Shown here: positions 6,669-30,195 of the stretch, piece by piece
Numbering within the stretch: position 1 is the stretch's first letter
How the letters are laid out: every line of letters begins with the position of its first letter
The notes under the pieces: generated by a model
The model's database searches: none
Told to the model about the DNA's origin: nothing
What the model saw: only the letters and a program-made list of their open reading frames with translations
Made by a program: the position numbers and the translations under genes
Assembly (NCBI GenBank): GCA_030167145.1
Contig: CP126532.1
Span: forward strand, 1,950,001 to 1,982,000
Length of the DNA: 32,000 nt
Source: Ktedonobacterales bacterium
GTDB lineage: Bacteria > Chloroflexota > Ktedonobacteria > Ktedonobacterales > JADMIN01
Direction: 5' to 3'

Positions 6669-6956
6669 TCAGGACTTCCAGGCGCCTTTGTCGTATTCGG
6701 CATGTGTGAGCAGATAGCGAATATAGATAATGCCCACATTGTAATGGATCTGTACGATCAGCCGATAATCATTGCCCTTGATGTTGAAGACAGTCTTGTC
6801 ACCAACTATGTCCGCGTGGCGAAAGGTTTGGCGCACCTCGCTAAGATTGTGCCAGGTGGCCTTGCGCGCAACGTTGTACCATGCCTTCACCTGTTCGACA
6901 CAGTCGCCGTGCGCGGCAGCCAATGCCATCAGGCGACTTTTCGCGATGATACGCAT
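6669..6956 (-). CDS. higB: HigB-type toxin (mRNA interferase family)
   Basis: 95-aa protein MRIIAKSRL...WYNVARKATWHNLSEVRQTFRHADIVGDKTVFNIKGNDYRLIVQIHYN...IYIRYLLTHAEYDK, which matches the HigB toxin pattern. GGGGAG SD. Confidence 0.85.
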   Translation of the reverse strand: MRIIAKSRLMALAAAHGDCVEQVKAWYNVARKATWHNLSEVRQTFRHADIVGDKTVFNIKGNDYRLIVQIHYNVGIIYIRYLLTHAEYDKGAWKS

Positions 6957-6984
6957 CCCACGCTCCCCTCACCTCAGCACAATA

Positions 6985-7010
6985 TTCGCATATTGCGAAC
7001 ATCTTGTCAA
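6985..7010 (-). promoter_or_regulatory. putative higBA promoter -35 with a palindromic operator
   Basis: TTGACA on the minus strand (7005-7010), followed by the perfect inverted repeat TTCGCA-TAT-TGCGAA (6985-6999), about 30 nt upstream of the higB start. This is a typical layout for an autoregulated TA operator. Confidence 0.5.
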
Positions 7011-7058
7011 TCAGTAGCGTGGCCGCAGAGCCGAAGTCGCTGAGGCAACCATCTGGTT

Positions 7059-7082
7059 TCGCTGGCATGTGAGGCGTATCAC
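7059..7082. repeat. right copy of the 24-bp direct repeat flanking higBA
   Basis: 24/24 identical to 6110-6133, spaced 949 bp apart. Confidence 0.9.
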
Positions 7083-7177
7083 ACCCATTCTCGCTTCTCG
7101 CTTCGTCAGTATACAGTAAGGGCTGCTACCTGCTATGCTGCCCTCAGCATGTGCAATGAGCGAGAAGAAGAGGATGG

Positions 7178-8539
7178 GTGTACAGGATGGATCACAGGCG
7201 ACGCGGCACGGCTCACCGTATCCCCGGCACATACTTTGCCAGCATCGCGCTGGCGTTGTTGGCGCTGCTGCTGGCGGCGTGTGGGGGCACGACGACGGGG
7301 ACTGGCGGCGGGCTGAATATCACCAAGGGCACGCCGATGACTACGCCGCGCAAGACGGCGACACCCGCGCCACCAACACCTGTGCCGCCGCCGTATACGT
7401 TCCCCTACTCGTGGCAGCCGGCGACCGTCGGCGCGGGGACGCTCGCCAACCTTGCTTTCGCGCCGTCTGATCCGCGCACGGGCTATCTTTGCACTGTCCA
7501 GTCGCCCGCTGGTGGTGGCGGACCGTTGCTCTATCGGACCAGTGACGGCGGCCAGAACTGGACCAGCCTGCCCTTGCCCAACACGTCCACAGCGGCCTAT
7601 CCGACATGCAGCCTGTTCATAGATCCGCTGAACGCCAGCGACGTGTTCTACGCTACGAGCGGGCTGTGGCGGAGCCAGAACGGCGGCGCGAGTTGGAGCG
7701 CACTGACGCAGCCAAGTGTGCAGGGGTATCCAAGTCTCACATTGATTTTGCTGACGGTGACGCAGGGCCGCATTGTCGTCGAGATGGGCATCAACGGCGA
7801 GGGACGGCTGCCCAATCCGCTGTTCGCCAGCGATGACGGCGGCAAGACTTGGAAGAACATCCCCCAAAATCTAAGCTCTAATGGGCAGAAATTGCTGAGC
7901 GGCGATCTGGTGGGAACGATGGGAGCGACGCTGGTGATCTACGCTATGGCTCCTAGCTCTGGCGGCAGTGGGAACTATGTGCCACCGGCTATGCCCGGCG
8001 GCAGTCAGCAGCCGTCAGGCGCATACTTCACGTCTACCGATGGCGGGGCTACCTGGAATCTGCTCAGTGTACCCGACCCCACGGCGACGATCCTCGCGTT
8101 CGCGCCGTCGGCGGATGGCACGACCTACAATATCTTGCTCACGGTGCTGCGCAGAATCCAGGGCGCGTCGGTGGCGGTACCGTACTTCTCGAAGGATGGA
8201 GGCCAGACGTGGCAGCAACTGCCGACGTTGCAAGGTATGGCGGGCGGCTTTCCTGATCCGGGGTCGCTGGGAAGGCTGGGAGCTGGAATCGCGCCCGATA
8301 GCTCGATTCTGGCCGACGCGCGGCATACCTATGCCGAAGAGGACAGCGACGCGGGCATCTTCCAGTTGAATCCCGCAGACGCGGCTCCGGCTTGGCGGGC
8401 GGTGGCGCTGTCGTCCATAGGCACATCCGGGGCTACTGGCTGGCAGATCACGCCCGGTCCATCGGGCACGCGCATGTGGACTATCGCTTTCGCGCAGGGG
8501 CAGTCTGGCGGGACGCTGGGCTATCTGGACCTGCCGTAG
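7178..8539 (+). CDS. BNR/Asp-box repeat lipoprotein (beta-propeller, Ycf48/sialidase-like)
   Basis: Lipobox LLALLLAACGG. Five Asp-box motifs (SDGGQNW, SQNGGASW, SDDGGKTW, STDGGATW, SKDGGQTW). The start is either GTG 7178 or ATG 7187. Confidence 0.8.
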   Translation: MYRMDHRRRGTAHRIPGTYFASIALALLALLLAACGGTTTGTGGGLNITKGTPMTTPRKTATPAPPTPVPPPYTFPYSWQPATVGAGTLANLAFAPSDPRTGYLCTVQSPAGGGGPLLYRTSDGGQNWTSLPLPNTSTAAYPTCSLFIDPLNASDVFYATSGLWRSQNGGASWSALTQPSVQGYPSLTLILLTVTQGRIVVEMGINGEGRLPNPLFASDDGGKTWKNIPQNLSSNGQKLLSGDLVGTMGATLVIYAMAPSSGGSGNYVPPAMPGGSQQPSGAYFTSTDGGATWNLLSVPDPTATILAFAPSADGTTYNILLTVLRRIQGASVAVPYFSKDGGQTWQQLPTLQGMAGGFPDPGSLGRLGAGIAPDSSILADARHTYAEEDSDAGIFQLNPADAAPAWRAVALSSIGTSGATGWQITPGPSGTRMWTIAFAQGQSGGTLGYLDLP

Positions 8540-13926: not shown

Positions 13927-16743
13927 CTAGTAGTTCACCGTGAACGTGACGTCGTCCACGAAGAAATCGCTTGGCAGAGATGAGTCGGTCGTGCCCTTGA
14001 AGTAGATCTGCACTTGCTGGCCCTTATAGCTGGTCAGCGAAGACGTGACGTCATAGGTGAACTGCTGCCACCCATGGGCGTTGGCGTTGCACTGCGTCAG
14101 CACGGTCTTGATGGTGGCGCCGCCGCTGGTGCGGATGCGCGCGTAGAGGTAGTCGTAGCAGGTGCTGCCGGACTCATAGGTGTCAATGTAGGCCCAGAAG
14201 CTGAAGGTGGCCTTGGTCATCGTGCTGGGAATGGTCACGGTCTGCCAGATCTGGTCGGTGCAGCTATTGTAGCCGCAGAGGTAGGCGCTGTCGCTGCCGG
14301 TGTGCGGATTGGTTGGGTCTACGATCTGGTAGCCGCCGCTGGATGACTCGGACCACGGGGACTGGCCACTCTCGAAGCCGCCGTTCTGGATGAGTTGCGC
14401 GGTGTTGCCGCCGCTGCTGGCGGTGACGGTGACGGTGACGGTGGCGCTATGCGTGGCGCTGCCCTCCGTGCCCGTGACGGTGACGGTGTAGCTGCCGGTG
14501 GCAACCGATGCGCCGACACTGACGGTGAGCGTGGAGGCGGAGCCAGCAGTGACCGAGGTGGGGCTGAGCGAGGCTGTGGGGCCGCTGGGCGAGACGCTGG
14601 CGGTGAGGCTCACGGTGCCCGCGGAGCCGCTGGTGACAGCGGTGCTGATGGTAGATGTGCCATTCGCGCCCTGGGCGATGCTCAGGCTGGTCGGGCTGGC
14701 GCTGATCGAGAAGTCGTTGGCTGGCGGAGCTGTCACGGTGAAGCTGGACGATGAGGTGGCCGTGCCGTTGGGGGTGGTCACGCTGATCGTGCCGGTGGTC
14801 GCGCCAGAAGGCACGGTGGCCGTGATGCTGGTGCTGCTGCCAACGGAGAAGCTAGCCGACGTGCCGTTGAACTTGACGGCGGTGGCGCCGGTGAAGTTGG
14901 TACCGGAGATGGTGACGCTGCTGCCCACGGCGCCGGAGGTCGGGCTGAAGCTGGTGATGGTGGGCGCGCTACCGCCACTGGATCCGCCAGCGGCGTCACG
15001 GGCGAGGTTCCATACGTCGGGAGTGCCGATGCCGGAAGCCTGGTCGTAGCCGGAGGTGGCGGGGTAGAAGAGGTTGTTGCCGCTGGTCACGTCGTGATAG
15101 GCGGTGTAGGTTTGTGTGGTGTTGAAGAGAGTATAGAGTGTGGCGTGGGCGTTGCCCAGGACGGGCTTGCTGTTCGCCGCGAGATACTGGTTGGTGTCTG
15201 CCGCGACGCCTGCCCAGAGGGGAGCCGCCGCGCTGGTGCCGCCGACTTCGATCCACGGGCTGGAGCTTGAGCAGCCAGCAGCGGTGACGGAGCAGTAGAC
15301 GGAGTAGCCGGAATTGGGGTCAGCATCGGCTGAGACATCGGGCACCTGGCGCATGCCGTTGGAGTAGGAGTTGGTTGTGCCAGGGCCAGTCTGATAGCTG
15401 GGCTTGGAGAAGTAGGTGCTGAGGCCGCCGCCGCCGCCCGCGCCCTTGGGGCTGCGCGAGGTGTCACTGGGGTTGGACCAGACGGACTCAGAGGTGTAGG
15501 AACCGCCGGTGCCGGTCTGGAGGTTGGTGCCGCCGACGCCGACGACGTTGGGGTCGTCAGCGGGGGAGTCAACGGCAAGGTTGGTGTCGTTGCAATCGTA
15601 GGCGCCGGAGTCGCCGGCTGCGGCGAAGATGGCCTGGCCCTGAGAGGCGGCCTGGGTGAAGATGTTGTTGAGGGCTTGCAACTCGGTGTTGCCGGAACTG
15701 GCTTCGCAGAGGCCCCAACTGGTGCTAGCGACCTTGGCGATGTTGTCGGTGACGATCTTGTTGTAGGTGTCGTTGACGCCCTGGGTTGAGTTCGGGCCGA
15801 TGTAGATTTTTTGTGTGGCGCCAGGCGCGGTGGCTGAGACGACTTCCATGTCGAGTTCGACTTCGATGGCGCCAGCGCCAGCGGCGTTGGTCGCGCCGTC
15901 CACGAGGACGTTGGAATACTTGGCTGAGCCAAGGCTGTAGTTGCTGAGGTAGGCGTTGACGTCGCTGGACTTGTAACCGTCGAGTTCGAAGATGGCGACG
16001 GTCTGGCCGGTGCCGTCGGCGCTGCTGATGAGGGAGTTCATGTCGTAGGCGGTGCGCAGTTCGCTGGGGGTGTAGCCGCCACCAGGGCCGGTGCGCGGGG
16101 CCAGTGGACTGGCGGGCCGGTAGACGGCGACGTTATCGAGGCCGCCGATGTTGAGGATCAGTCCGGCGAGCGTGGAGGGCACCGATGGCTCTTTGGTCGG
16201 CGCGTAGACGCTGCGGCCATGGTAGGAGTAGTCGCCGATCTGGACATTGAAGGCGCGCTCGACCGCCGAGGCGGAGCCGGAGGCGTCAATCAGTGTGCGA
16301 TTGGACGAGACGGAACTGACGAGAATGCCCTGGCCGCGCAGGTAGGCCACCACGGCGTTGACGTTCGCCGTTGTGGGGGCGAACATGGAGTTGAATTGGG
16401 TGGTGGTCAGGAAGTGATGGTAGAGGCCGGAACGTGGGTCGTTCTGCGCGGCGATGAGCGCATTGAGCGCGTCGGTGTTGCGCAGATTGAGGGCGATGGA
16501 GAGCGTGAGCGCGCGATCACCAGCGGTGGCGCGCAGCGCTTTCGTATGCTTGAGACCGGGGATGAGATGGCCCGGAATGGTATACCAGCCGCTGCCCTGC
16601 CGCCCAAAGTGTTGGGATGTGGGGGCGGATTGCTGGGGTGTGGCGGAGTGGGCCGAGACGAATGCGGGGGTGATGAGCAGAACGCTCAGCGCCATCAATG
16701 CGCTGGCAATGAGTAGGGAGACACGTAGAGTCTTGCGCTTCAT
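13927..16743 (-). CDS. secreted S53 (sedolisin/kumamolisin-type) peptidase with pro-domain, IPT/TIG, Ig-like and beta-sandwich C-terminal domains
   Basis: Signal peptide [31 protein letters not shown]. Pro-kumamolisin-like activation region. Catalytic serine motif [15 protein letters not shown]-like [24 protein letters not shown]. Ig-like [14 protein letters not shown]...[14 protein letters not shown]-terminal [11 protein letters not shown]...FFVDDVTF. Confidence 0.9.
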
Positions 16744-17079
16744 TCCTCACCTCAAACTCGCGTTGCACGGCAACACCGTCGTCGCCGTGTCAGGGGTCGC
16801 CATCCTTCCAGGGGGAGTGGCACACCGGTGTGCCAGCGGCCCGTGGCAAGAGATTTCCATGCGCCAGGGGTTTGGGTCTATGCCGAGGGAATGCGCGAGG
16901 GTGTGTTGAGTGGCCGCTCCTCCTCTCCACTTGAGCGAGAGCCGATCTGCCGGTTCACCTGCCGGCGGCTCTCCGCGTGGCTGCGCCTGTCTGGCCGCGC
17001 GTATGCGCGGATGTTCACCTGCCGCCATTAGCCAAAATGCCGAAGCGGCAATACGCACTATTGACAGGCGACAGAAGAA
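16744..17079 (-). promoter_or_regulatory. long 5' leader of the S53 gene; the 3' 187 nt (16744-16930) are conserved with 20559-20747
   Basis: This is the region between the predicted -10 and the start codon. The conserved part has 5 substitutions and 2 single-nt indels relative to the paralogous leader. It contains the hairpins GGCACA-CCGG-UGUGCC (16819-16834) and CACGGC-N12-GCCGUG (16766-16789). Confidence 0.6.
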
Positions 17080-17107
17080 AGTATACTGATGTGGTGGAGT
17101 TTGTCAA
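17080..17107 (-). promoter_or_regulatory. sigma70-type promoter TTGACA-16 nt-TATACT for the S53 gene
   Basis: On the minus strand the -35 TTGACA is at 17102-17107 and the -10 TATACT at 17080-17085. The same hexamers and spacing occur at 20894-20921. Confidence 0.65.
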
Positions 17108-17290
17108 GGAGGCAAAATAAGGTGACATAAGCCCTCGGCCCTCAAGGACTGGAGCACGGCGGCGGGAGGGCGATTCCGCCTCGGCCATCAATGGTTGGAG
17201 CACGGCCGTGGAAAGGTACATTGTGCTGTCGTATGGGAAGGGGAGGAAGGCCAGCGATAGGTGAGGCGCTGTGGAGCGCGCGAGAGAGGG

Positions 17291-17333
17291 TAGATAGAAA
17301 GCCGGATAGGAGCGTGATTGCCCCTATCCGGCT
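17291..17333 (-). terminator. rho-independent terminator of the 1051-aa gene
   Basis: AGCCGGATAGG / CCTATCCGGCT stem (17300-17333), followed on the minus strand by TTTCTATCT. Confidence 0.65.
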
Positions 17334-17402
17334 CTGTTGTCGCACGCGCTATGAAGAACACACTACGTAGAACGCACTTTATTCCTCATCGCCGTGTTCA
17401 GA

Positions 17403-20400
17403 TTAGCTGACGGCCACATCGTCGTAGAGGGTGTAGGTGGCGTCGCCAGCGTAGTTGTCGTCGTGGCTGGTGAGGGTGAGTGTCACCGAATGCCCCGCCG
17501 TCACACTGCCTGAGACTTTGACCCACGTGCCAGTGTTGGTGCAGGTCTTGGCGAGCAGTGTCGTGGTGGTGTTGGATGTGTTGTCCTTGAGCGTCACGGT
17601 CGCCCAGTCATAGGTGACGGTGTCGGGGCAGACGACCTTGTACCAGAACGAGATAGAGCTTGCCCCACTCGGAATGGTGAAGGTCTGGCTGATCGAGCTA
17701 TCGCCGTTGGTCGGCGAGGTGCTGCCCGCCTGCCCAGCATAGCTGCCCGAATGGCTGCTGGTGCTGATGCTGGTGGCCGCGCCCGAAGTCGTCCAGCCGC
17801 TGAAGGCGCCTGTCTCGAAGCCAGGATTGGTGACCGGGTTCGTAATCGGCGCGCTCAGGGCCACATCGTCGTAGAGGGTGTAGGTGGCGTCGCCAGCGTA
17901 GTTGTCGTCGTGGCTGGTGAGGGTGAGTGTCACCGAATGCCCCGCCGTCACACTGCCTGAGACTTTGACCCACGTGCCAGTGTTGGTGCAGGTCTTGGCG
18001 AGCAGTGTCGTGGTGGTGTTGGATGTGTTGTCCTTGAGCGTCACGGTCGCCCAGTCATAGGTGACGGTGTCGGGGCAAACAACCTTGTACCAGAAGGTCA
18101 GCGTGCCGCTGCCACTCGGAATGGTGAAGGTCTGGCTGATCGAGCTATCGCCGTTGGTCGGCGAGGTGCTGCCCGCCTGCCCAGCATAGCTGCCCGAATG
18201 GCTGCTGGTGCTGATGCTGGTGGCCGCGCCCGAAGTCGTCCAGCCGCTGAAGGCGCCTGTCTCGAAGCCGCCGTTGGTGATACCGCCGCCACTGCTCGTA
18301 ACCGTCACACTGACGGTGGCGCTATGGGTCGCGCTGCCCTCTGTGCCGGTGACAGTGACGGTATAGGCTCCGGTGGCGACCGAAGATCCGACGGAGACCG
18401 TCAAGGTTGAGGAGTTGCCTGCCGTTACCGAGGTTGGGCTAAGCGACGCCGTTGGGCCGCTGGGCGAGACGCTCGCCGTCAGGCTGACCGTACCCGCCGA
18501 GCCGCTGGTGACAGCGGTGCTAATCGTAGACGTGCCACTGCTCCCCTGTGCGATTGACAGGCTGGTTGGGCTGGAACTAATCGAGAAGTCGTTGGTTGGC
18601 GGCGCGGTCACGGTTACCGCAACCGTGGTGTTGTGCGTCGCGCTGCCCTCCGTGCCGGTGACCGTGACGGTGTAGCTGCCGGTAGCAACCGAAGAGCCGA
18701 CGTTCACCGTAAGTGTGGACGAGTTTCCTGCCGTCACCGAGGTTGGATTCAGTGTCGCTGTTGGGCCGCTGGGCGAGACGCTCGCCGTTAGGCTAACGGT
18801 TCCGGCTGAGCCGCTGGTGACAGCGGTGCTGATGGTGGACGTGCCGCTCCCGCCCTGCTGAATCGAGAGGCTGGTCGGGCTGGAGCTGATCGAGAAGTCG
18901 TTGGTCGTTGTTCCACCACAATTGGGAAACTTGAACGAGCCGATGCGCGTCTTCCAGTTGAAGCTGCCGTTGGATGGGATATATTCGTTGGTGTACCAGA
19001 AGGTGCAGTCGTCTGCGGGATCCACCGTCATGGCGCTGTAGTCACCCCAGCGGGTGAGGGTGCCGGTCTGGGATCCAGCACCGACGATGAGGCTGGTTTC
19101 ACCCTGCGACATTTGGCCGAGCGGATCACTCGCCAGTCTTCCGGTATAGCTGATGCCCGGATGCACCGAACTGCTGGAGAGGCTGAAGCCCATCGCCATA
19201 TCGCCGGATTGGTCCTGGGCGATGCTGCCCATCCAGCGATAGCCAGAGTCAGGGGCATAGGTGCCAGACTGGTAGACGGTGGGTGTGCCGCCGGGGCTGC
19301 GAATCTCGTACCAGCGCATGCCGACCGAACTGCCTGCCGTCACCGCGTGGTCAACGACGAGGGATTCGTAGCTGCCGAAGTTGCGATAGGAGAGACGATA
19401 CATGAGGCGGTCGGCGAGCGAATCGAGCTGGTTGGTGGTGCCAGACTGCGGGATGCAGGTGCCGCCGCCGCAGGCCTGGGCGTAGGAAGTCACCGCGATG
19501 CTCGATGGGCCGGTGAAGGTGGTGTTGGCTGGCGTGGTCCAGTCTACGTGGAACTTCCAGAACGCGAGCGAGGTGGTGGTACCCAGCGCCAGAACGTAGT
19601 TCGGCGCACCCGTTGGCGGGAGGGTTGAGCCGTCCAGGTTGGAGGCCAGCAAACCGCCGTAGCTGGTGCTGGTGGTGAAGCACTGCTGGGTGGCAGCGGC
19701 GCCGCTCAGCATTTGCGAGCGGTTGAAGGCGCAGTCTTGGGCGCCGAGGAAGCTGGTGCCAGCAGCGTTGAAGAGGTTGTAGGTTTCGTAGTAGGCGTCT
19801 GGCCAGACAGCCATCTTGGGGTAGTCGGGGAAGTTGGAATAGGAGAACGAGTAGCGGTAGTAGGAGCCAGTTGGGTCACTGGTAGTGGAGACCGCTACGC
19901 ACTGATAGAAGTTGGGGTCGGGGTTGGTGACGGCGAACTGGCTGATGATCCAGCGATTTGCGATGCCGTCATAGACGACGGTAGGATCGCCGTCGTTGTC
20001 GGTCTGGCAGAGGCCGCCGAAGCCACTCCAGAGGGTGTTGATCGCAACCGGGCCGTAGCGCACAGAGCCGACCGCGCCACGTGAGGCGTCTTTGTTGAAG
20101 ACTGCGAAGTCGGTGTTGACGGTCTGTACGTAGTCTTGTGGGCCAACCGCGCCGTTGGTGTCGGGCGGGGCGGATGCGACAGTGAAGGTGCCGTTGGGGC
20201 CAGAGAAGCCGTTGCCGACGCCGTCGAAGTTATTTGAGGCTGTGGGCGCGGCTAGAGTGCCGATGTGGGTTTGGAGATACGACTTGATGTGGTTGGGCTT
20301 GCCGCGATGGACAGGCGCCAGCGTGGGGAAGTCGTCGGCGTTGTGGCCGTCGCCCTTCCAGGGCTTGCCGGGAATGGTTCGCAATGCTGGCGAGAGATCA

Positions 20401-20558
20401 TTCTTGACGGACTTGCTGACGACAGGGTGTGAGTGCTTCGGAGCCGATGTTGTTGCCGGGCGCCCGAAGACGAGTGCGGGGGTAATGAGCAGAACGCTCA
20501 GCGCCATCAATGCGCTGGCGACAATCAAAGAAATGCGTAGTGAAGTTCGTCGCTTCAT
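17403..20558 (-). CDS. secreted multidomain protein: unrecognised ~520-aa N-terminal domain, 2 Ig-like repeats, 2 tandem beta-sandwich (CBM-like) modules
   Basis: Signal peptide [32 protein letters not shown]. The N-terminal domain has DP-V-YD---RW and WGDYS motifs suggestive of a beta-propeller. There are two NDFSISSSPTSLSI...[13 protein letters not shown] repeats and two ~149-aa NGGFETGAFSGW...YTLYDDVA repeats. Confidence 0.85.
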   Translation of the reverse strand: MKRRTSLRISLIVASALMALSVLLITPALVFGRPATTSAPKHSHPVVSKSVKNDLSPALRTIPGKPWKGDGHNADDFPTLAPVHRGKPNHIKSYLQTHIGTLAAPTASNNFDGVGNGFSGPNGTFTVASAPPDTNGAVGPQDYVQTVNTDFAVFNKDASRGAVGSVRYGPVAINTLWSGFGGLCQTDNDGDPTVVYDGIANRWIISQFAVTNPDPNFYQCVAVSTTSDPTGSYYRYSFSYSNFPDYPKMAVWPDAYYETYNLFNAAGTSFLGAQDCAFNRSQMLSGAAATQQCFTTSTSYGGLLASNLDGSTLPPTGAPNYVLALGTTTSLAFWKFHVDWTTPANTTFTGPSSIAVTSYAQACGGGTCIPQSGTTNQLDSLADRLMYRLSYRNFGSYESLVVDHAVTAGSSVGMRWYEIRSPGGTPTVYQSGTYAPDSGYRWMGSIAQDQSGDMAMGFSLSSSSVHPGISYTGRLASDPLGQMSQGETSLIVGAGSQTGTLTRWGDYSAMTVDPADDCTFWYTNEYIPSNGSFNWKTRIGSFKFPNCGGTTTNDFSISSSPTSLSIQQGGSGTSTISTAVTSGSAGTVSLTASVSPSGPTATLNPTSVTAGNSSTLTVNVGSSVATGSYTVTVTGTEGSATHNTTVAVTVTAPPTNDFSISSSPTSLSIAQGSSGTSTISTAVTSGSAGTVSLTASVSPSGPTASLSPTSVTAGNSSTLTVSVGSSVATGAYTVTVTGTEGSATHSATVSVTVTSSGGGITNGGFETGAFSGWTTSGAATSISTSSHSGSYAGQAGSTSPTNGDSSISQTFTIPSGSGTLTFWYKVVCPDTVTYDWATVTLKDNTSNTTTTLLAKTCTNTGTWVKVSGSVTAGHSVTLTLTSHDDNYAGDATYTLYDDVALSAPITNPVTNPGFETGAFSGWTTSGAATSISTSSHSGSYAGQAGSTSPTNGDSSISQTFTIPSGASSISFWYKVVCPDTVTYDWATVTLKDNTSNTTTTLLAKTCTNTGTWVKVSGSVTAGHSVTLTLTSHDDNYAGDATYTLYDDVAVS
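17412..18269. repeat. 447-bp-period tandem duplication inside the 1051-aa gene
   Basis: 17412-17822 and 17859-18269 are identical by eye, apart from two single substitutions and one ~22-nt patch (17647-17668 versus 18094-18115). Confidence 0.9.
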
Positions 20559-20893
20559 TCCTCACCTCAAACTCGCGTTGCACGGCAACACCGTCGTCGC
20601 CGTGTCAGGGGCCGCCATCCTTCCAGGGGGGAGTGGCACACCGATGTGCCAACCCGCCCGTGGCAAGAGATTTCCATGCGCCAGGGGTTTGGGTCTATGC
20701 CGAGGGAATGCGCGAGGGTGTGTTGAGTGGCCGCCCCTCCTCTCCACCTGCCCACCAGCCGTCCCGACCCACCCGCGGGACGCGCTCAGTACTCGTCGCG
20801 TCTGCCGTGCCCGCAAACATACGCGGATGCGCAGCTTCTATTGGCCAGAATGCCGAAAGAGTGCTACGTATTCTTGTACAGACGACACAAGAA
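20559..20893 (-). promoter_or_regulatory. long 5' leader of the 1051-aa gene; the 3' 189 nt (20559-20747) are conserved with 16744-16930
   Basis: See 16744-17079. The upstream ~145 nt of the leader are only loosely similar between the two copies. Confidence 0.6.
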
Positions 20894-20921
20894 AGTATAC
20901 TGATGGAGTGCAGATTGTCAA
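20894..20921 (-). promoter_or_regulatory. sigma70-type promoter TTGACA-16 nt-TATACT for the 1051-aa gene
   Basis: On the minus strand the -35 is at 20916-20921 and the -10 at 20894-20899. Confidence 0.65.
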
Positions 20922-21105: not shown

Positions 21106-21134
21106 TTGACGGTGGGGGGCGCAGGTGCTACACT
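21106..21134 (+). promoter_or_regulatory. putative tRNA-Val promoter TTGACG-17 nt-TACACT
   Basis: -35 at 21106-21111 and -10 at 21129-21134, 15 nt before the mature tRNA 5' end. Confidence 0.5.
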
Positions 21135-21148
21135 GTTTCTTGCATTGA

Positions 21149-21225
21149 GGGCGATTAGCTCAGTTGGTTAGAGCGCCACGTTGACATCGTGGAGGTCGGG
21201 GATTCGAGCTCCTCATCGCCCACCA
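21149..21225 (+). tRNA. tRNA-Val: tRNA-Val (anticodon GAC) with encoded CCA
   Basis: Cloverleaf: acceptor GGGCGAT/ATCGCCC, D-arm GCTC-AGTTGGTTA-GAGC, anticodon stem CCACG/CGTGG with loop TTGACAT, T-arm GGGGA-TTCGAGC-TCCTC, then ACCA. Confidence 0.95.
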
Positions 21226-21236
21226 GAAATCTTGAG

Positions 21237-21268
21237 AGCCGCCGGGGAAGCACCCTGGCGGCTTTGTG
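21237..21268 (+). terminator. terminator hairpin after tRNA-Val
   Basis: AGCCGCCGGGG-AAGCA-CCCTGGCGGCT followed by TTGTGG. Confidence 0.55.
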
Positions 21269-21335
21269 GTATGCTGAGGTCACGCTCGGTGATCACTACG
21301 GTTGCGGCACGACTGACGAGATGGGAGGCACGAAC

Positions 21336-21617
21336 ATGAGCCATACAGTTCAGGTGCCTGACGAGCTATATGACAAACTCGCCAGCTATGCGAGAGAGCA
21401 GGGTTCGACACCTGACGATATGCTGATTGCCTGGGTAGCTGAGATTGTGCGGCGGACGGAAGAGCGTCAAGCGCGCCAGGAGGAAGCGGAAGAAGTGGCG
21501 GACGATCCCATCGCGCCGTTCATTGGCGCATTCACGTTTGGTGTGGGCGACCTGGCCGAGCGGCATGATAGCTATCTGGCGGAGGGTTATGCGAACACAC
21601 GTGAGCCTGGAGAGTAG
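21336..21617 (+). CDS. VapB-like antitoxin
   Basis: 93-aa ORF MSHTVQVPDELYDKLASYAREQGSTPDDMLIAWV... with a GGGAGG SD. It overlaps the start of the downstream PIN gene. Confidence 0.65.
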   Translation: MSHTVQVPDELYDKLASYAREQGSTPDDMLIAWVAEIVRRTEERQARQEEAEEVADDPIAPFIGAFTFGVGDLAERHDSYLAEGYANTREPGE

Positions 21618-22029
21618 TATCTTCGTTGATACGTCAGGATGGGTGAGTCTCATCGGCGAAGATGAGACATTTCACGATGAGATTACGGCTATCTATCAGG
21701 AAGCGATGCGGCAGAGATGCCGTTTGATCACCACCAACTATATCGTGACCGAAGTGGTGGCGCTGCTGACCAATCGCCCAATTGTTCCGCGTCAACGCAT
21801 GATTGCCTTTGTGGACGCGCTGAAAGCCGCGCCGCATGTGCAGATCGAGTTTGTTGATCGCGCCATAGATGATGTTGCCTGGGTGCGTATCAAGGAACGA
21901 TCAGAACGAGATTGGTCGTTGGTGGATGCGAGCAGCTTCATTTTGATGGAGCAGTTCAACGTCATCCAGGCATTGACGCTGGACCACCATTTTGAGCAGG
22001 CTGGATTCATTCGATTGCCCACTCCATAG
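21589..22029 (+). CDS. vapC: PIN-domain toxin (VapC family)
   Basis: The acidic PIN residues are in the expected order: IFVDTSGW, VTEVV, LVDASSF, TLDHHF. The start is ATG 21589 or GTG 21601, overlapping the antitoxin stop. Confidence 0.8.
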   Translation: MRTHVSLESSIFVDTSGWVSLIGEDETFHDEITAIYQEAMRQRCRLITTNYIVTEVVALLTNRPIVPRQRMIAFVDALKAAPHVQIEFVDRAIDDVAWVRIKERSERDWSLVDASSFILMEQFNVIQALTLDHHFEQAGFIRLPTP

Positions 22030-29990: not shown

Positions 29991-30025
29991 AGGGAACTCC
30001 GTGCGGAGGATCCTAGCAGGGGGCA

Positions 30026-30195
30026 GGATGGGTGATACAGGAAGCTCGCGGCATGAATGCCGCGGGTAATCCCGATTGGCAAGCTTGCCGCATAAATACA
30101 GCGACTCGTCTCGTGGCGAGAGAACAGCGGGTGGTGGGATGGGTGATACAGGAAGCTCGCGGCATGAATGCCGCGGGTAATCCCAATTGGCAAGC
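30026..30195. repeat. two copies of a 59-nt unit, 111 nt apart
   Basis: 30026-30084 and 30137-30195 are 58/59 identical. Each contains the hairpin CGCGGCAT-GA-ATGCCGCG. Confidence 0.9.

Follow-up and report, generated by a model that had tools for sequence, protein, structure and literature searches.

A near-identical tract in the long 5' leaders of two tandem secreted-protein genes of a Ktedonobacterales bacterium appears better explained by copying between the genes than by a folded regulatory RNA

Two tandem genes for secreted proteins in an uncultured Ktedonobacterales bacterium of soil type share a long mRNA leader whose start-codon-proximal half is nearly identical in the two copies (7 differences in 195 to 197 nt), and copying between the two genes would explain this sameness better than a folded regulatory RNA does. 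The reading that we prefer, with a probability of about one-half, is that the long leader is functional and that gene conversion between the tandem copies keeps its proximal half uniform. By our folding models, the strongest structural signal lies upstream of the near-identical tract, in the half of the leader that a preliminary description of this locus had passed over as loosely similar; as modeled, this upstream half is a better candidate for a structured RNA than the tract that had been flagged.

All coordinates refer to the window, that is, the whole 32,000-nt stretch of DNA that was analyzed; its GC content is 62.6%, and the homologs of its proteins are from Ktedonobacterales (Chloroflexota). 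Genes A and B lie in tandem on the same strand, and the two tract copies are 3.8 kb apart (Table 1). The gene A product carries an N-terminal signal peptide, a pro-kumamolisin activation domain, and TIG/Ig-like domains; that of gene B carries an N-terminal signal peptide, Ig-like repeats, and a CBM_4_9 domain. The Ig-like repeats are common to both proteins, and the catalytic parts are unrelated.

Among the neighbors of these genes is a tRNA-Val (GAC) gene (21149-21225, plus strand) divergent to the gene B promoter, with a promoter-like site at 21106-21134. The region is flanked by two toxin-antitoxin pairs, at 21264-22029 (plus strand) and at ~6670-7360 (minus strand; 5311-6047 of contig L107); in one of them the toxin is a PIN-domain protein and its partner has 117 aa, the other consists of HigB and an HTH protein, and both genes of the PIN pair have non-ATG starts (TTG and GTG). 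Farther away, an intergenic 70-nt direct repeat (30015-30084 and 30126-30195, plus strand; 93% identical, spacing 111 nt) has the hairpin CGCGGCAU-GAAU-GCCGCG in both copies, and it is there that one short-read contig (L110) of the Logan assembly SRR22113990 stops. This contig and a second one (L108) are 100% identical to the window across 10.3 kb and 11.1 kb, respectively; the same organism was therefore sequenced twice, and the assembly adds no new sequence information.

Table 1. Features of genes A and B and of their shared 5' region; paired coordinates are for equivalent features of the two genes
Feature	Gene A	Gene B	Strand	A vs B identity	Remarks
Gene A	13927-16743		minus		938 aa, secreted S53 sedolisin
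Gene B		17403-20558	minus		1051 aa, secreted Ig-like/CBM_4_9 protein
Promoter, sigma-70 type, TTGACA-16-TATACT (11/12)	17080-17107	20894-20921	minus	~85%	equivalent positions; gene A site conserved in B, 83-87% identity around it
First ~95 nt of transcript				~65-70%	
Three-way-junction domain (predicted)	16980-17074	20795-20888	minus		P1 closes P2 and P3; same fold in B as in A
Following ~45 nt				~55-60%	
Hairpin P4 (single-sequence fold)	16935-16976	20753-20791	minus		loop CAGGUGAA in A, GGGUGG in B
Tract	16736-16930	20551-20747	minus	~96%	start-proximal half of 5' UTR plus first 8 nt of CDS
Orphan SD-like purine run GGAGAGGAGGAG	16917-16928	20734-20745	minus		5' edge of tract
79-nt block (from alignment)	16839-16917		minus	100%	identical in both copies
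Hairpin P6 (predicted fold)	16802-16854	20617-20671	minus		long, irregular; cap in A, GGCACA-CCGG-UGUGCC
Hairpin P7 (predicted), CACGGCGAC / GUUGCCGUG	16763-16791	20578-20606	minus		9-11 bp; 10 nt 5' of SD
SD GAGGUGAGG and ATG	16741-16753 (SD 16753-16745, ATG 16743-16741)	20556-20568	minus		
Signal-peptide codons 3-13				~50%	of 7 conserved residues, 4 with synonymous changes
Signal-peptide codons 14-28, second identity island	16660-16704	20472-20516	minus	44/45 nt	14/15 codons
Terminator-like 16-bp perfect hairpin, then UUUCUAUCU		17300-17335	minus		3' of gene B

That the tract belongs to an mRNA leader, as the preliminary description had it, was confirmed as far as sequence can tell: it makes up the start-codon-proximal part of a predicted 5' UTR of about 330 nt in both genes. 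Conserved promoters lie ~330 nt upstream of the start codons, and no other site in the 7.9 kb scanned matches the sigma-70 type as well; for gene A the predicted transcription start site (TSS) is near 17072, giving a predicted 5' UTR of ~329 nt. Since a terminator is predicted after gene B and before the gene A promoter, gene A is probably transcribed from a promoter of its own. The hairpin of this terminator, which a simple consensus scan missed, lies in a region (17270-17402) whose folding z score is −6.89. Between the promoter and the start codon we found no intrinsic terminator conserved in both copies that could act as a transcription attenuator; the sole terminator-like site in the leaders, at 17050-17038, is a weak one with a 5-bp stem, is confined to A, and falls outside the tract.

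Homology between the two 5' regions runs from ~20 nt upstream of the −35 box through codon 28 of the signal peptide, and divergence over this distance is very uneven (Table 1). The tract and a second identity island within the signal-peptide codons are separated by ~32 nt of diverged sequence, and the cassette outside the tract and this 45-nt island has diverged by 35 to 50%. Codon identity in the island exceeds the same-codon baseline of the Ig repeats (0.54 to 0.62; binomial P ~0.003). The island also contains a local hairpin, CAGCGC-AUUGAUG-GCGCUG.

The promoter, leader, and signal peptide appear, from the sequences compared, to be a lineage-specific 5' cassette found in these two genes only. 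Signal peptides are unrelated in the homologs of A and the orthologs of B, and the upstream regions of three B-ortholog lineages (75 to 79% amino acid identity) are unrelated to the leader; with the cassette missing from both sets, it would be lineage specific and transplanted between genes. Shuffling of domains and modules seems to be common among these secreted proteins: in a related metagenome-assembled genome (MAG; L044, 1-2729), the catalytic part of a sedolisin resembling A is followed, in one fusion, by a C terminus resembling that of B.

Within the cassette, alignment of the minus strand with MAFFT reproduced the earlier count of 5 substitutions and 2 single-nucleotide indels between 16744-16930 and 20559-20747. 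The substitutions are at A coordinates 16918, 16838, 16836, 16828, and 16797, and both 1-nt insertions are in copy B. The tract extends beyond those limits, however, to position +8 of the CDS, and so takes in the SD, the ATG, and ATGAAGCG. Identity drops sharply at either edge: scored over 30 columns at a time, it is 53 to 77% just 5' of 16930 and 53 to 60% just 3' of 16736. As described earlier, the copies share no long ORF, and the two +1 indels do not restore frame; the tract is therefore noncoding. It is also far better conserved than the coding DNA that the genes share under protein-level selection, in agreement with the former impression that the Ig-like coding repeats are more diverged: these repeats have 79 to 81% nucleotide identity, a longest identical run of 23 to 29 nt, and the same codon at 54 to 62% of identical residues.

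Two invariant runs, of 79 and 61 nt, make up much of the tract. The homologous 5' module spans 437 columns; in 20,000 permutations of its variable sites, the longest run averaged 21 nt and never exceeded 55 nt (P < 5e-5 for the observed 79 nt), so that identical runs here are longer than the divergence allows, as is looked for in gene conversion. Interlocus gene conversion typically yields mosaics with sharp edges. We propose that interlocus gene conversion (concerted evolution) between copies 3.8 kb apart would have homogenized both the tract and the 45-nt island, and that conversion probably persists on segments that are also functionally constrained and similar enough to recombine. This proposal draws on two copies in one genome. 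Secondary structure alone is not enough to account for ~96% identity, because the structured 5' half of the leader is only ~65% identical and because much of the tract is predicted to be unpaired.

Further copies of the leader were sought widely, and only the two in the window were found. The tract has no third copy in the window plus 10 kb past each end (52 kb). Neither copy of the leader resembles any riboswitch class that the preliminary description could recognize, and a scan with Rfam agreed: at the gathering threshold, Rfam 15 matched only tRNA-Val in the whole window, and with both leaders at E ≤ 10 it returned only noise (P33 at 12.6 bits, where the gathering score is 45, and H19_2 at 10.7, where it is 50). 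Exact 18-mers gave 16 matches in JGI metagenome contigs (a collection without the source sample), all limited to the seed and therefore attributed to chance; exact 22-mers gave none in GTDB genomes. Searches with blastn, nhmmer, and covariance models of the whole leader (R1) and of the three-way junction (R2) covered 1.3 Mb from 79 sedolisin loci of Ktedonobacterales together with the DNA upstream of the B orthologs from three lineages; they matched the two window copies and nothing else. Nor did the tract match plasmids or phages by blastn, or the 45-aa signal peptide any of 1.84 billion representatives by phmmer. Exact-protein look-ups for close strains returned only the 5.07-Mb source contig (JGI metagenome 3300045419, Ga0494333_323) for LipA, and the source contig plus Logan assembly SRR22113990 for UvrC and an acetyltransferase. 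The preliminary description had named a lack of further homologs with compensatory changes as the outcome that would count against its structured RNA; this is what we found in all reachable data.

Could the tract nonetheless be a riboswitch- or thermosensor-like cis-regulatory RNA, held constant by purifying selection, in which CAUUCC(CUC) pairs with the SD and start region? The tract lies where a leader element of this kind would be expected, and it contains two local hairpins that look real in the folding models. The shape of P6 does not change between the copies, its energy being −22.9 kcal/mol in A (z = −1.24) and −29.1 kcal/mol in B (z = −2.90, 0 of 200 shuffles), and P7, at −16.6 kcal/mol, has a z score of −2.21 (8 of 200 shuffles). 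Differences between A and B are concentrated in loops: 5 of the 7 fall in the apical and internal loops of P6, a mildly significant clustering (P = 0.034). The indels are complementary, since the G that is inserted on one arm of P6 has an inserted C opposite it; in B, the extra G together with a C>G change (5' arm) and the extra C (3' arm) close the internal loop of A as added G-C pairs. In addition, the 3' identity edge at +8 coincides with the end of a predicted long-range helix.

Taken as a whole, however, the tract gives no sign of excess folding stability. Its consensus fold has z = +0.20 against column shuffles, in a test that ~96% identity leaves without power; whole-UTR folding gives z scores of −1.05 (A) and +0.81 (B); and the MFE folds of the two copies disagree despite their near-identity, that of copy A lacking the GGCACA/UGUGCC register. 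The first 74 nt (16930-16857) are predicted to be unstructured (z = +1.10). The most conserved part, the 79-nt block, is mostly in such sequence: its first ~60 nt are C/A rich and predicted to be unstructured, and its last 16 nt (16854-16839) lie in the 5' arm of P6. Of the claim of a structured cis-regulatory leader RNA, then, the leader position, the noncoding nature, and the conservation above that of the coding repeats stand, the local P6 and P7 hairpins lend residual support, and excess folding stability of the tract as a whole is not supported.

Sequestration of initiation fared less well. The elements cited for it, CAUUCC (plus strand 16888-16893) and GGAAUG (16741-16746), are present, as is CACGGC-N12-GCCGUG, but occlusion of the SD and AUG is the same as in leaders whose upstream part was dinucleotide shuffled: the mean unpaired probability from SD to AUG is 0.305 in A (shuffles, 0.320 ± 0.077) and 0.441 in B (shuffles, 0.362 ± 0.077). 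The CAUUCC:GGAAUG pairing is therefore not above chance. With no terminator or antiterminator conserved in both copies, no Rfam match, no homolog and hence no covariation, and identity far above that of the structured 5' half, a riboswitch-like mechanism is unsupported, and we regard this reading of the tract as unlikely.

The upstream half of the leader presents another picture. Although A and B are only ~65 to 70% identical there, single-sequence folds independently give the same architecture, a three-way junction in which P3 forms the third arm. The consensus fold of this domain has z = −4.25, and 1 of 200 shuffles was as good. Twelve of its 27 base pairs vary between the copies and all 12 stay paired, 3 through double changes and 9 through one-sided ones; in slid-alignment controls, only 33 to 47% of cells pair. 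The apex of P2 is conserved as UUCGGCAUUYUGGCYAAU. Between the junction and the tract, hairpin P4 keeps its shape, and its inner stem has two double (compensatory) changes between A and B when compared by hand. The junction and P4 have no Rfam match. A shared upstream fold kept by compensatory changes makes it very likely that the entire leader functions as a structured RNA and that its two copies are old.

Several observations sit poorly with the simplest form of gene conversion. Against a single event, the 32-nt diverged gap between the identity islands requires either two events or patchy repair. Against conversion acting alone, the tract edges fall at plausible functional boundaries (the base of P4, the orphan SD-like run, and CDS position +8), a pattern that fits selection as well as conversion. 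Against a single recent neutral event, the residual differences cluster in loops. Together with the complementary indels of P6, the gap, the edges, and the loop clustering suggest that the homogenized segments are also functionally constrained. In our preferred reading, that of a functional leader homogenized by conversion, the tract brings to the leader the orphan SD-like run, the invariant block with its first ~60 nt C/A rich and predicted to be single stranded, P6, P7, and the real SD and start. The likeliest role would be posttranscriptional coregulation of both secreted proteins, acting on the stability of the mRNA, on translation initiation, or on both; we give less weight to ligand sensing and to SD sequestration.

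A trans-acting factor (RNA-binding protein, sRNA, or 30S subunit) that reads the primary sequence of the C/A block and the SD-like run is a reading compatible with gene conversion, although we consider it doubtful. It would account for a 79-nt block that is 100% identical and mostly predicted to be unstructured, and for GGAGAGGAGGAG, which in each copy sits exactly where the tract begins on its 5' side and is followed by 16 nt that contain neither ATG nor GTG nor TTG. In one variant, the run bound by 30S would serve as a STAB-SD-like 5' stabilizer, the mRNA having been processed to a 5' end near 16930. The genome encodes an RNase Y homolog nearby (L107, 19362-20915), which makes mRNA decay of the Gram-positive type plausible, and cry3A, as described in the review PMC4113751, offers a precedent for a long primary transcript trimmed to an SD-like stabilizer. 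The motif AGGAGG, however, is not overrepresented (15 found versus 21 expected from composition), so the orphan run is only a lead, and 195 contiguous conserved nucleotides are more than any single binding site needs.

A broader possibility, to which we give similarly low odds, is that the entire ~330-nt leader represents an undescribed, lineage-restricted Ktedonobacterales class of cis-regulatory RNA whose near-identity came from selection rather than conversion. The three-way junction, P4, an invariant single-stranded platform, P6, and P7 would together form the leader, which would coregulate secreted hydrolases and surface proteins via a sequence-specific trans-acting factor or a ligand.

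Constraint at the level of DNA strikes us as distinctly improbable. It would require operators and/or a second regulated promoter near the genes, and the stretch from −187 to +8 is a typical location for regulatory DNA. The GGCACA-YCGG-UGUGCC element reported earlier is present and, as DNA, forms a perfect 6-4-6 palindrome of 16 bp (GGCACA-N4-TGTGCC) in A, of which B keeps the half-sites with a changed spacer. On the other hand, no promoter-like site was found inside the tract, the spacing of TGGCAC-N5-TGTGC is wrong for a sigma-54 site when inspected by hand, and short operators should leave islands of conservation rather than invariant runs of 79 and 61 nt.

A leader peptide or upstream ORF that ends in the SD and couples its translation to the main gene is one that we judge very improbable: the minus-strand ORFs 16747-17058 and 20562-20816 do share a stop at the UGA in GAGGUGAGG, but B carries two +1 insertions, ~24 nt apart, that displace its frame by 2 and make the peptides differ, no in-tract AUG has an SD at a workable distance, no gene is called there, and at 63% GC chance alone should produce long open frames. 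Least probable of all, in our estimation, is that both leaders received a mobile or repetitive element or that the tract is an assembly artifact, for although the identity edges are sharp, the tract takes in the SD, the ATG, and the first codons in the same register in both genes, lacks terminal inverted repeats, has no further copies in 52 kb or matches among plasmids and phages, and differs between copies at 7 sites, so that it is not a collapsed repeat. Readings as an antisense ORF, a sigma-54 promoter, or a MITE were rejected on grounds of frame, spacing, and boundaries.

Ktedonobacteria are a filamentous, spore-forming lineage of Chloroflexota, in which, to our knowledge, almost no RNA biology is known. 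If the leader is regulatory, it would give a first handle on posttranscriptional control of secreted proteases in this group. The locus shows a whole promoter-leader-signal-peptide cassette common to genes whose catalytic parts are unrelated, and it shows tandem copies that diverge very unevenly. Such uneven divergence calls for caution in scans that equate "better conserved than coding" with structured RNA.

Among known systems, the Bacillus subtilis aprE leader and the Escherichia coli ompA 5' UTR are structured 5' stabilizers, of ~60 to 130 nt, of mRNAs for secreted or envelope proteins. The leader described here may resemble them in that a secreted-protease mRNA starts with a stable stem-loop structure, here the three-way junction, which begins within a few nucleotides of the predicted TSS; it is much longer, though, and unrelated in sequence. 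Like riboswitches and SD-sequestering RNA thermometers, it is long, contains hairpins, and includes a C/U-rich stretch complementary to the SD, but it differs from them in that it matches no Rfam family, that its expression platform does not exceed chance, and that the tract shows no covariation. The 5' mRNA stabilizer STAB-SD of Bacillus thuringiensis cry3A (Agaisse and Lereclus 1996, reviewed in PMC4113751) is a possible analog in two respects, a long primary 5' UTR, in cry3A that of a highly expressed protein gene, and an SD-like run >100 nt upstream of the start that serves no initiation. Like a STAB-SD, GGAGAGGAGGAG is an SD-like sequence within a 5' UTR, complementary to the 3' end of 16S rRNA and with no start codon after it; here, though, the candidate motif is statistically usual and would explain only 12 of 195 nt. 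Gene conversion between tandem paralogs has been modeled for the tandem HMA4 copies in a preprint on interlocus gene conversion and concerted evolution (bioRxiv 10.1101/2025.10.29.685298). As in that system, the copies studied here lie a few kilobases apart and form sharp-edged, near-identical mosaics in diverged sequence; unlike HMA4, the homogenized part is a noncoding leader plus a piece of signal peptide and not the gene body. On present sequence comparisons, the leader is an orphan in one uncultured genome that matches no described family, and it belongs to known kinds of phenomena, namely the long structured 5' UTR and the concerted evolution of tandem copies.
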